In this document: positions 35,404-63,402 of the stretch, one piece after another | Layout of the letters: the number at the start of each line of letters is the position of its first letter | Position numbering within the stretch: the stretch's first letter is position 1 | Source: Deltaproteobacteria bacterium | Lineage (GTDB): Bacteria; Myxococcota_A; UBA9160; JAFDDA01 | Assembly: GCA_019311105.1 (NCBI GenBank) | Contig: JAFDDA010000001.1 | Location: forward strand, 325 to 64,324 | Direction: 5' to 3' | Length of the DNA stretch: 64,000 nucleotides | Program-made: the position numbers and the translations under genes | Notes under the pieces: generated by a model | The model's input: the letters and a program-made list of their open reading frames with translations, nothing else | What the model was told of the DNA's origin: nothing | The model's database searches: none

Positions 35404-35420
35404 GGACTGTCCGGGGAGGC

Positions 35421-35542
35421 GGCCGGCGTGGCGAGGGCTTCTCCGGCGAATGGCTCGGCCGCGGTGGGGCGGGGTCTCAGCCTCGGACTCTCTTGCGCGG
35501 CCTGTGCTTTATTTCGCCGGAGAAGCCCTCGCCACGCCGGCC
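35421..35542. repeat. palindromic element copy A (perfect 30-bp stem, 62-nt loop)
   Basis: 35421-35450 GGCCGGCGTGGCGAGGGCTTCTCCGGCGAA is the exact reverse complement of 35513-35542. The loop begins TGGCTCG and ends GCTTTAT. An inner 7-bp stem pairs GGCCGCG with CGCGGCC. Confidence 0.9.
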
Positions 35543-35608
35543 TCTTGCCTGCTCGAGCGCAGAAACGTGGTGCGAATCTTCCTGGGGGTTTCGGTGTCTA
35601 ACCCGACG

Positions 35609-60274: not shown

Positions 60275-62269
60275 GTGACCGCGCCCTATGTGACCTCTCC
60301 GTTCGCCCCGCGGCGGCGCGCCACGCGTGAAGTGCTCGTGGGTGATGTCGGCATCGGCGGCGAGAACCCGATCCGCATCCAGTCCATGACCACGACGAAC
60401 ACCCAGGACGTGGCGGCGACGGTCGAGCAGACCGAACAGCTGGCCGCGGCCGGGTGCGAGATCGTTCGCATCACGGCGCCCTCGATCACGGACGCCGAGG
60501 CTCTGGCCGCGATCCGGGCCGAGCTCGACCGGCGCGGCGTCCGTGTCCCGCTCGTGGCCGACATCCACTACACGCCGAATGCCGCGATGGTGGCGGCCGA
60601 ACATGTGGAGAAGGTCCGCGTGAACCCCGGAAACTACGCGGACAAGAAGAAGTTCGCCGTGCGCGAATACGGGGACGCAGAGTGGCGGGCCGAAGTGGAA
60701 CGGGTTGCCGAACGCTTCCGTCCCCTGGTCCAGCGCTGTCGAGAGCTCGGGAGGGCGCTGCGCATCGGCACGAACCACGGCTCTCTCGCCGACCGCATCA
60801 TGAACCGCTACGGCGACACGCCCGAAGGCATGGTGCAATCCGCTCTCGAGTTCCTCGACGTGTGTGAGAGCGAGAGTTTCCGCGACGTCGTCTTCAGCAT
60901 GAAGTCGAGCAACCCCCAGGTGGCGATCCAGGCCTACCGGCTGTTGGCCGCACGGCTCGAGGAGCGCGCACCGGGCGAACCCTCCTATCCCTTCCACGTC
61001 GGCGTGACCGAAGCCGGCTCGGGCGAGGACGGGCGCGTGAAGAGCGCCATCGGGATCGGCGCGTTGCTCGAGGATGGCATCGGCGAGACGATCCGCGTGT
61101 CGCTGACCGAGCACCCGGTGAAGGAAGTGCCCGTCGCGCGGGCTCTCGCGGCCTGCTACGAGGCGCGCTCGAAGCAACCCGAGGTCGAAGCGCCAGAGCC
61201 CGGAGCTGGCTATTGCGACGACCCCTTCGACCACGTTCGCCGAGCGTCGCACTTCGTCCGGGCGGGATGCGAGATCGGTGGCGAAGCGCCGGTGCGGGCG
61301 GAGCTCGAGCTTGGCGATGTGCCGGAAGACGCGGCGGGGCTGGCTCGCCGGCTGGCCGTCTCGTTGGCCGCGGCCCCGAACATCGAGTGCGAAGGCCTCA
61401 CGGTGAACGTTCGCAGCGAAGCCGATGCCGCTCGCGTGGAAACCCTCGCAGCGGAGTTGCGCCTGGTTGACATCGACGCGCCCCTCGCAGTGGTGGGCCC
61501 CCCTTCGCTTTCGAGCCAGGTTCCGTCGGCCGCGCGCTGGGTGGTGCCGCTGGCCCCGGGTGAGGACCCGGCCGAAGCGCTCGGCCTCGATCGCCCCGTC
61601 GAGTTACGCCTCGACGGTGCGCTCGTCGCCCTTCCGGGCCAGGTGGATGCCGTGCTCGACGCCGCTCGGGGGCGGATGGATCTGCTCTTCTCGACGGGCG
61701 CCTGGCCGCCCGTTCATGCGACCCGGACGCTCGCGGCGCAGCTGCGTGCCCGCGGCGCCGGGCATCCGATCGTCCTGCGTCACATCGGGCTCGGTTCGCA
61801 GGCCGACGACGAGGCGGCGCTTCTCGCTGCGGCCATCGATCTCGGCGCGCCGCTCTGCGACGGCCTCGGCGACGCCATCGTCCTGCCCGCGGGCAAGGAC
61901 CCGGGCCGCTCGCTCTCGCTCGGCTATCGCATCCTCCAAGGCGCGCGCCAGCGGACGACGTGGACCGAGTTCATCTCCTGCCCATCCTGTGGTCGCACGC
62001 TCTTCGATCTCGAGGAAGTCACCGAACGCATCCAGGCCCGCACGGGCCACCTCGAGGGCGTGAAGCTCGCGATCATGGGTTGCATCGTGAACGGCCCCGG
62101 CGAGATGGCCGACGCCGACTTCGGCTACGTCGGCTCGGGCCCGGGCCGGATCAACCTCTACGTTGGCAAGGAACTCGTCGAGCGGAACGTCCCCGAGGCC
62201 GAAGCCGACGACCGGCTCGTCGAGTTGATCCGAAAACACGGCCGCTGGATCGACGTGCCCGCCGCCTAG
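60275..62269 (+). CDS. ispG: 4-hydroxy-3-methylbut-2-enyl diphosphate synthase, long form with inserted domain
   Basis: IRIQSMTTT, RVNPGNY, RIGTNHGSL and the C-terminal motifs SCPSCGRT...GCIVNGPGE. At 664 aa it is about 300 aa longer than the short enterobacterial form. Confidence 0.95.
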   Translation: MTAPYVTSPFAPRRRATREVLVGDVGIGGENPIRIQSMTTTNTQDVAATVEQTEQLAAAGCEIVRITAPSITDAEALAAIRAELDRRGVRVPLVADIHYTPNAAMVAAEHVEKVRVNPGNYADKKKFAVREYGDAEWRAEVERVAERFRPLVQRCRELGRALRIGTNHGSLADRIMNRYGDTPEGMVQSALEFLDVCESESFRDVVFSMKSSNPQVAIQAYRLLAARLEERAPGEPSYPFHVGVTEAGSGEDGRVKSAIGIGALLEDGIGETIRVSLTEHPVKEVPVARALAACYEARSKQPEVEAPEPGAGYCDDPFDHVRRASHFVRAGCEIGGEAPVRAELELGDVPEDAAGLARRLAVSLAAAPNIECEGLTVNVRSEADAARVETLAAELRLVDIDAPLAVVGPPSLSSQVPSAARWVVPLAPGEDPAEALGLDRPVELRLDGALVALPGQVDAVLDAARGRMDLLFSTGAWPPVHATRTLAAQLRARGAGHPIVLRHIGLGSQADDEAALLAAAIDLGAPLCDGLGDAIVLPAGKDPGRSLSLGYRILQGARQRTTWTEFISCPSCGRTLFDLEEVTERIQARTGHLEGVKLAIMGCIVNGPGEMADADFGYVGSGPGRINLYVGKELVERNVPEAEADDRLVELIRKHGRWIDVPAA

Positions 62270-62769
62270 GGCAAGGGTGGGGCCGCGACATCGACGCCGC
62301 CGAGTTCGCCACCGGAGGTGACTCCACGCGCCTCGTCGATGAAGGCCAGCGCTCGGGAATCCACGAGCGAAATGTGATCGCGCCCGACCGCCGCCGCCGC
62401 GCCCGCCAGGATCAACCCGACCACCAGCAGCCCTTCTGCCGTCCCGAGCAAGCCGCCCCCGAGTCGGTCCGCCCAGCCGAGGCCCGCCGCTCGGACGCCG
62501 CGCTTCACGATCTTCCCCACGATGACGACCGCGCCCACGACGCTGATGACGAGCAGCACGCCCGACCCGACCCGCAGCGTGAAGTCGCCCCAGCCGACGC
62601 CGGCTTCGGTACGAAGCCACGCCGCCAACGGATCCGTGAACAACCGAACCGCAATGATGGCCCCGCCCAGCGCCACCAGCGAGAACGCCTCTCGGATCAT
62701 CCCGATCAGCAACCCGCGAGCCGCCGCAATCGTCAAGATCCCGAGCGCCAAGACATCGACTGCCGCCAC
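62266..62769 (-). CDS. cvpA: CvpA-family membrane protein
   Basis: Four TM segments and the CvpA-like N-terminus VDVLALGILTIAAARGLLIGMIRE. Its stop shares CTAG with the ispG stop. Confidence 0.8.
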   Translation of the reverse strand: MAAVDVLALGILTIAAARGLLIGMIREAFSLVALGGAIIAVRLFTDPLAAWLRTEAGVGWGDFTLRVGSGVLLVISVVGAVVIVGKIVKRGVRAAGLGWADRLGGGLLGTAEGLLVVGLILAGAAAAVGRDHISLVDSRALAFIDEARGVTSGGELGGVDVAAPPLP

Positions 62770-62837
62770 GAGAACCCCCCGCCACGAATCTACCGAACAG
62801 CCTGAGGACTTACCTCTACCGGCCCAACTCGGCGCAG

Positions 62838-62953
62838 GCGGCCGGGCCCGATGAGGGTTCCGGCGAATGGCTCGCGTTGGTGCGCCTCGATGGCGCGGGA
62901 CACCCGGGCGGGCTGCGCTTTATTTCGCCGGAACCCTCATCGGGCCCGGCCGC
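62838..62953. repeat. palindromic element copy B (perfect 30-bp stem, 56-nt loop)
   Basis: 62838-62867 GCGGCCGGGCCCGATGAGGGTTCCGGCGAA is the exact reverse complement of 62924-62953. The loop begins TGGCTCG and ends GCTTTAT, as in copy A. Confidence 0.9.
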
Positions 62954-62967
62954 GCCCTACATGGGCC

Positions 62968-63402
62968 CTACGCCGGCGGTTGCTGGTAGAGATAGGCCCG
63001 CAGGCTCCGAATCTCTTCGCCCTGCTCTTCGATCTCGTCCCGCAGCAAATCCCGCATCGAGATCATGCCGATCACACGTCCCTCGGTGACGATGGGCAGG
63101 TGCCGGCACCCCGCGTTGCGCATCTTGTCGATGGCCGATTCGCGGTCGTCGCCGAGCCCGGCCGTGACGACATCGCGCGTCATCACGTCCGACACGCGCA
63201 CGCTGCGGACATCGCGGCCCGGGACCACGACGCGCGTCATCAGGTCGCGCTCGGAGAAGATCCCAACGAGTCGCTCCCCCTCGACGACGGCCATGGCGCC
63301 GATGCCGCGCAGGGCCATCTGGCGCGCCGTCTCGAAGACGGTGCTGTCCGGCGAGGTATGGATGACGTGCTGGCTTCGAAGGACGCGTTGAATGTTGTGC
63401 AT
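62968..63402 (-). CDS. CBS-pair domain protein
   Basis: Two CBS repeats (VIHTSPDSTVFETARQMALRGIGAMAVV and VMTRDVVTAGLGDDRESAIDKMRNAGCRHLPIV). ATG at 63402. Confidence 0.8.
   Translation of the reverse strand: MHNIQRVLRSQHVIHTSPDSTVFETARQMALRGIGAMAVVEGERLVGIFSERDLMTRVVVPGRDVRSVRVSDVMTRDVVTAGLGDDRESAIDKMRNAGCRHLPIVTEGRVIGMISMRDLLRDEIEEQGEEIRSLRAYLYQQPPA

Follow-up and report, generated by a model that had tools for sequence, protein, structure and literature searches.

The window, a 64,000-nt stretch of DNA corresponding to contig C174 of assembly G000 (4.76 Mb, 258 contigs, 68% G+C), carries two copies of a long palindromic element, here termed copy A and copy B. Copy B comprises a G-rich 30-nt left arm (GCGGCCGGGCCCGATGAGGGTTCCGGCGAA; 62838..62867, + strand) and a right arm (62924..62953) that is its exact reverse complement (30/30 positions), separated by a 56-nt loop (62868..62923). 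The inner 8 nt of the left arm (CCGGCGAA; 62860-62867), the 5' edge of the loop (TGGCTCG; 62868-62874), the 3' edge of the loop (CTGCGCTTTAT; 62913-62923), and the inner end of the right arm (TTCGCCGG) are conserved in other copies; the middle of the loop is free to vary, and the arm columns covary across 28 copies. Both neighboring genes are on the minus strand: a CBS-pair protein gene (PF00571; 62968..63411) lies to the right, its TAG stop (62968-62970) 14 nt from the right arm, and cvpA (PF02674, Colicin V production protein family; 62266..62769) lies downstream to the left, its start (62769) 68 nt from the left arm. Copy B folds at approximately -112 kcal/mol on either strand (z = -9.2 and -9.9 relative to shuffled sequences), and its pairing is thus far beyond chance. 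In the CBS transcript, the TAG stop codon is itself predicted to be paired (CGGCGUAG with CUGCGCCG), lengthening the foot of the hairpin (62954-62975 and 62825-62837), and a second in-phase GTAGGGC repeat is present between the CBS stop and the arm. At its other end, cvpA is convergent with ispG (+ strand), with the two stop codons overlapping at 62266-62269.

Copy A (35421..35542, + strand) has perfect arms of 30 bp and a 62-nt loop, with an imperfect extension to 35414-35549. It lies 17 nt past the stop codon of ftsK, a + strand gene, and the gene downstream is assigned to the LolA family. Both copies read TGGCTCG...GCTTTAT on the + strand; because copy A follows a + strand gene and copy B a minus-strand gene, copy B is inverted relative to transcription, and the CBS transcript reads it in what proves to be the minority (antisense-core) orientation. 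The initial annotation had described the perfect 30-bp stem, the loop edges shared with copy A, the strand and spacing of the flanking genes, and the inversion of the loop relative to transcription, and all of these descriptions hold.

Copies A and B belong to a repeat family. Anchoring on the junction motifs recovers 31 copies in G000, and a motif-free inverted-repeat scan adds six candidates; candidate C36 from that scan was rejected as a family member. The G000 total is at least 36, namely about 36 intact copies plus several that are degenerate or hybrid. The layout common to G000 copies is a left arm ending in CCGGCGAA, a loop running from TGGCTCG to CTGCGCTTTAT, and a right arm opening with TTCGCCGG, with arms of 22-34 bp (0-3 mismatches) and loops of 44-141 nt. 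Across the whole family, the element is about 87-210 bp long, with arms of ~30 bp and loops of 23-141 nt, and the loop ends in CTGCGCTT(T/G)A(T/C) between the same arm ends. The conserved core is asymmetric, and consists of ~9 bp of inner arm on each side together with TGGCTCG and CTGCGCTT(T/G)A(T/C). Identity among copies is 0.91-0.92 in the junction blocks, 0.37 in the middle of the loop, and 0.42 in the outer arms (0.35 for shuffled arms). In many lineages, among them the X and Y types of G000 and the copies in G147, G105, G017, and G108, two pyrimidine-pyrimidine mismatches (C·T/T·C) are fixed in the inner arms, at positions -6 and -8; the inner arms of the copy A/copy B type are fully paired. 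The persistence of these mismatches in an otherwise self-correcting palindrome argues for selection on a specific folded shape, and, because these positions near the core stay uncorrected, mechanical perfecting of the palindrome cannot by itself account for the pattern.

No copy contains a gene within its loop, and hence an autonomous version of the element was not found. The conserved ATG within GAATGG was considered as the start of a small ORF and rejected, as loop lengths of 53-62 nt break the frame across copies. In Rfam, nothing beyond generic models of long hairpins (miRNA precursors) matched, and these reached 38 bits where the threshold is 150. The family appears to be undescribed, and is best likened to a REP/MITE-like palindromic repeat with an inverted pattern of conservation and without a RAYT. 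Immediately after the right arm, 10 of 36 copies carry the hexamer TCCTCG and a few others a close variant of it (examples are found on G000 contigs C10, C45, C94, and C218, and also in G001), and the element may thus reach a few bases past the palindrome on its 3' side. Separately, G000 contains a perfect 28-bp hairpin with a 3-nt loop (C25:10461-10519; ...GGGGAGCCCTGCGGC ggc GCCGCAGGGCTCCCC...), the arms of which resemble those of the family but which lacks the core; it may represent an excised or empty version of the element.

When one genome per prokaryote species was scanned for the exact pattern, the matches were confined to Myxococcota or 'Deltaproteobacteria' MAGs, apart from three armless ones elsewhere. 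At two loci in gammaproteobacterial Woeseiaceae MAGs (L050 and L053), TCATGGCTCGCTGCGCTTTACTTCG joins the two core edges without a loop or long arms. A covariance model built from 28 copies was run on 151 genomes sampled from the order. At E ≤ 0.001 it matches 71 of them, and at E ≤ 1e-8 about 53, or roughly a third, in nine of the order's 12 GTDB families; it has no match among 32 genomes of f13, the only family of the class-level sample outside those twelve. Copies score 75-93 bits in the correct orientation and 34-49 bits when the same hairpin is reversed, so the asymmetric core contributes about 40 bits beyond a long hairpin alone. Twenty loci from other families show the same anatomy, including a minimal version of 87 nt with a 23-nt loop (TGGCTCGCTTCGCTGCGCTTTAC). 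For annotation, the model marks dozens of gene 3' ends per genome in these uncultured Myxococcota.

The congeners G000 and G001 have at least five occupied intergenic sites (six elements) in common, each with its element oriented identically in the two genomes; chance predicts ~0.1. Arms and loops are unalignable at these shared sites, and the core variant is specific to the genome: every G000 copy reads GAA...TTTAT and every G001 copy TCA...TTTAC, although both variants also occur in distant families. A smaller difference of this kind separates G105, in which three of four copies read TTGAT, from G147, in which six of seven read TTTAT, both orthologous pairs included. Possible explanations for genome-specific cores at shared sites are concerted evolution of the cores of old copies, repeated colonization of the same sites, or overwriting of the core. 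Other sites differ between congeners. The copy A and copy B sites are unoccupied in G001, the ftsK of which is about 84% identical, and in G002 the CBS gene has a different neighbor and the element is absent. At these empty sites, insertion boundaries could not be read, owing to divergence of the flanks or to differences in gene order; a metagenome scan for close relatives returned a single distant locus and an exact CvpA look-up returned none, and hence no empty/filled allele, nor any empty-versus-filled site with alignable flanks, was found. The X and Y sub-types of G000 also occur as a module of ~400 bp, in which they face each other across a conserved ~50-nt spacer with its own small hairpin (C12:25700-26106, C84:46502-46871, C188:4312-4694, and C131:9459-about 9800). 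The module recurs between the genes of four convergent pairs that are unrelated to one another, and each of its hairpins lies 0-17 nt from a stop codon; this suggests that the composite moved as a unit. Together with the sites that differ between congeners, this composite forms the indirect basis for mobility of the family. A search for target-site duplications found nothing above background, with direct repeats in the flanks scoring 5.14 vs. 5.29 for controls; a short duplication of 2-3 bp may exist.

The placement of the element was surveyed for 35 G000 copies using a home-made codon-bias ORF caller (4322 genes covering 89% of the assembly; stops exact, starts approximate). Facing stop codons lie within 27 nt of 33 of the 35 copies, compared with 14.7% expected under uniform intergenic placement (p about 1e-25); the median distance is 13 nt (range 0-27 nt), and 22 copies are within 15 nt. 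By region type, 20 copies fall between convergent genes and 15 between co-directional ones; divergent regions contain none, even though they make up 34% of intergenic bases (p = 4e-7). In all 15 co-directional regions, the element is closer to the upstream stop than to the downstream start. The core is oriented with the stop-adjacent gene in 27 copies and against it in six, with two ambiguous (p = 3e-4); copy B is in the 18% minority. Rougher gene calls give a similar bias elsewhere: the stop is on the 5' side of about 20 of 25 copies in loci from G001, OFTM280, and others, and of about 16 of 22 in loci from other families. Orientation is the same in all eight orthologous or positionally shared pairs examined; an apparent flip between G069 and G147 is accounted for by a convergent element pair and by contig orientation. 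In single-contig G001 (16 copies, origin unknown), orientation showed no pattern relative to replichore. The copies are scattered beside unrelated housekeeping genes, and no common family was found among the neighbors; thus, the element is not a cassette.

Placement alone is no proof of function, as two unrelated repeat families of G000 (M1 and M2) also abut stop codons. Convergent spacers in G000 have a median of only 22 bp, and, taken with the position of M1 and M2, this indicates that much of the stop-proximal placement may reflect where insertions are tolerated. The stop codon adjoining the element is TAG in 25 of 33 cases, vs. 45% genome-wide (p = 3e-4) and about 50% in non-overlapping genes; TAG was rejected as a part of the element or a fixed target, its distance being variable. 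The genome-wide TAG share itself seems high for a genome of 68% G+C, and in overlapping co-directional genes of G000 the stop is TGA in 93%.

The arms evolve in mirror image. The covariation set comprised 28 copies drawn from three genomes; here both partners vary in 26 of the 32 arm pairs (245 cells), a level reached by none of 500 shuffles, and sliding the partner by a single column abolishes the signal. The same covariation is found in loci of other GTDB families (305 both-side cells). In a helix kept by selection on RNA, G·U would be the commonest exception to Watson-Crick pairing. Among 700 arm cells, G·T or T·G occurs in only two, compared with 25 other mismatches, and loci of other families are alike in this respect; the near-absence of G·U points to copying of arm to arm at the DNA level rather than to RNA selection. 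Two elements are orthologous between G105 and G147, their flanks on either side being 86-91% identical. Identity in the arms is 0.79 and 0.65, similar to the 0.66 and 0.62 of the loops and the 0.35-0.66 of adjacent intergenic DNA, and arm differences are mirrored in 18 instances and confined to one arm in two (7/7 mirrored in one pair, 11/13 in the other). Some of the mirrored changes are runs of 3 nt (e.g., CGA/ATC and GGG/AAA). The Y-type copies of G000, seven of which are closely related, show about 10 mirrored changes and three that affect a single arm. The arms therefore appear to drift at about the neutral rate, yet in mirror image. Mirrored indels in the C83/L036 pair were considered and dropped, as arms at sites shared by G000 and G001 are no more alike than random pairs.

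Neutral drift, retained pairing, avoidance of wobble pairs, and changes in blocks all fit a process in which one arm is copied onto the other in DNA. Template switching homogenizes the arms of inverted repeats (PMC7202029, PMC8604942), and the pattern seen here resembles quasipalindrome template-switch mutagenesis in that one arm would serve as the template for the other, yielding mirrored multi-nucleotide changes; the same process can invert the spacer. Template switching is known at single loci, and not as the long-term keeper of a whole repeat family; we infer that it acts in this way here from the pattern of sequence change. The family is an unusually clean natural case of long DNA palindromes that stay perfect over evolutionary time.

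We consider it somewhat more probable than otherwise that the element is an old REP/MITE-like DNA palindrome of a single Myxococcota order, with arms kept by DNA-level copying and a core kept by selection. Such a palindrome, whether selfish or domesticated, would survive where a compact genome tolerates it best, namely within about 25 nt downstream of a stop codon, as a rule in the same orientation as the gene that ends there. A DNA-level process, such as template switching within the palindrome or hairpin-templated repair, would maintain the complementarity of the arms, rather than selection for pairing in RNA. Selection would hold the core, most likely through a putative factor that recognizes the folded single strand of DNA or RNA. 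Any transcript crossing the element would have to form a rod of about -110 kcal/mol just behind the stop codon, which would probably act as a 3'-end barrier or a terminator-like structure, and the two-thirds of copies within 15 nt of a stop may, by analogy with REPs of Escherichia coli, hinder terminating ribosomes. Effects at the 3' end could be incidental or domesticated under this most likely reading; a purpose-built RNA element ranks second.

A more specific proposal, to which we give only tentative credence, is that the element is of a new kind, defined by its structure: the core with its fixed mismatches would be read in folded single-stranded form by a non-RAYT factor, and clamped by sequence-free arms of ~30 bp that arm-to-arm copying keeps perfect. 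If so, the factor could be an RNA-binding protein acting at mRNA 3' ends, or else a recombinase or nuclease by which the core is moved or overwritten, and the genome-specific cores at shared sites would reflect concerted evolution of a dispersed repeat.

The purpose-built RNA element would be a selected 3'-UTR module of the host (a terminator, a stabilizing cap, or a rod bound by a protein or RNase III), in which both pairing and core are under RNA selection. We regard this as possible but rather unlikely. It would account for the co-orientation of 82% of copies with the upstream gene, and for the conservation of the core at sites common to species in which neutral sites are saturated. The inner loop-closing helix is mostly invariant but shows slight CG/GC exchange and U·G pairs (12 cells), unlike the arms, and a T-rich stretch (TTTATTT) begins within 0-4 nt after this helix, in the sense orientation, in 36 of 38 copies. 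It is the sole T-rich stretch of the element, yet in many other lineages it reads TTGAT or TTGAC, and no copy has a T-run after the outer stem. The interior of the loop folds no better than shuffled sequence (-22.7 vs. -22.1 kcal/mol). Moreover, the change-saturated arms essentially lack G·U, with mismatches that are mostly not wobble pairs, and change in mirrored multi-nucleotide runs, and about 18% of copies, copy B included, are antisense to the gene they follow.

Terminators bear on the same proposal from both sides. Strict intrinsic terminators (a perfect stem of at least 6 bp, a loop of 3-8 nt, and a T-rich tail) follow only 44 of 4060 G000 genes (1.1%), so other 3'-end signals must exist; the order seems to be nearly without canonical terminators, which makes the elements candidates for 3'-end formation. 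One copy (C10:6346-6466) holds a textbook terminator within its loop (GCGGGCGGCTC TTGG GAGCCGCCCGC, followed by TTTTCTTTT). Against this, the orthologous site in G001 (L040) has a canonical terminator between the stop codon and the element, and canonical terminators adjoin some other copies in that genome; there, the element is not needed as a terminator. In E. coli, REPs within 15 nt of a stop codon stall ribosomes and block 3' exonucleases, according to the summary of Liang et al. (2015) given in PMC12306157. The present family resembles REPs, as that summary presents them, in that 22 of the 35 surveyed copies place a stable hairpin no more than 15 nt from a stop; it differs in that its hairpin is far longer (about 30 bp plus a structured loop).

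The initial annotation held that position relative to gene ends is constrained but loop orientation is not, and on that ground favored a role for the stem itself, in transcript 3'-end formation or protection or as a DNA cruciform, over a sequence-specific RNA loop; insertion at a fixed distance from stop codons was its alternative. The genome-wide survey of stop distance and orientation upholds the first point (33 of 35 copies within 27 nt of a stop, none of 35 divergent), so that placement is non-random, but orientation is not free either: the 27:6 bias, a similar bias in related genomes, and the identical orientation of eight of eight pairs contradict the second. The outcome that the annotation had named as refuting it, random placement and orientation, was not observed. 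A fixed distance is contradicted by the 0-27 nt range, which varies even among closely related Y-type copies, and M1 and M2 are placed alike. That the stem matters is partly sustained, as the arms are perfect, fold equally well on both strands, and, lacking G·U, look to be maintained in DNA. However, the asymmetric core is the most conserved part of the element, and it and the orientation bias matter too. Placement behind stop codons is real, but an element consisting of a stem only, free in orientation and set at a fixed distance from stops, is consequently very unlikely.

Little can be said for a classical MITE mobilized by a cut-and-paste DDE transposase, or for an attC-like site of a tyrosine recombinase, which we judge slightly more improbable still. 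The element is small, dispersed, and bounded by inverted repeats, as such an origin would predict, but the termini are variable, direct repeats do not exceed controls, and no multi-copy transposase is visible in the assembly; on these grounds the classical MITE was rejected. Integron attC sites also lie directly behind ORFs and are co-oriented with them, are conserved in structure over sequence, and have unpaired bases that mark the strand, which the C·T/T·C mismatches recall. The present family nevertheless lacks the R/L core boxes (RYYYAAC/GTTRRRY), cassette arrays (its copies are scattered), and, apparently, a linked integrase, and its conserved part is on the tip side of the hairpin and not at the base. 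ERIC/IRU and Correia (NEMIS) elements are imperfect palindromes of 100-150 bp in transcribed intergenic regions that fold in mRNA and have orientation-dependent effects. These are conserved over their full length, including the termini, and Correia elements generate a TA duplication, whereas in the copy B family only the core is conserved.

A close likeness is to REP/REPIN elements, which are extragenic palindromes of tens to hundreds of bases, present in many copies, that form a long hairpin and lack a target duplication (PMC3116915, PMC2817692, PMC3733652). Further points in common are compensatory changes in the hairpin, which have been reported for REPINs (PMC3116915), vertical persistence over long periods, and a frequent position immediately downstream of stop codons. 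In REPINs, the outer REPs are conserved and the inside is variable; in the copy B family, the asymmetric center is conserved and the outside variable, and there is neither a GTAG/CGTC head nor a link to a RAYT. This reversed pattern points to a putative recognition factor. Mobilization of the family as a REPIN or REP doublet by a RAYT (an IS200-like Y1 transposase) is, despite these similarities, very improbable, as conservation is reversed, the sole Y1 gene of G000 is flanked by arms of M1, single-contig G001 has 16 element copies and no Y1 transposase, and Y1 genes show no association with the element across the order (about 28 of 55 element-bearing genomes vs. 67 of 151 overall). REP-like elements can thus persist across a bacterial order without a RAYT.

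The Y1 transposase of G000 (PF01797, 303 aa, C12:15589-16500) is instead bracketed by inverted M1 arms (GACGAAGGGGACGGTTCTCTTTGATGACGAAACCA; C12:15589-16540, locus L062, outside the window), and not by those of the copy B family. M1 comprises about 30 hairpins in G000, each ~100 bp, with perfect arms of 36-42 bp and a 28-nt spacer. Because its arms flank the only Y1 gene, M1 is the REPIN-like family of this genome, and the two together look like a RAYT with its own REPIN family. M2, a third repeat, measures about 165 bp and has terminal repeats that are conserved (CTAGAACCCATCTCACAAACCCC); it is found at C21:31296-31459, C47:3494-3657, C150:38124-38287, and other sites, where the adjoining genes have stop codons that overlap with its CTAG ends.
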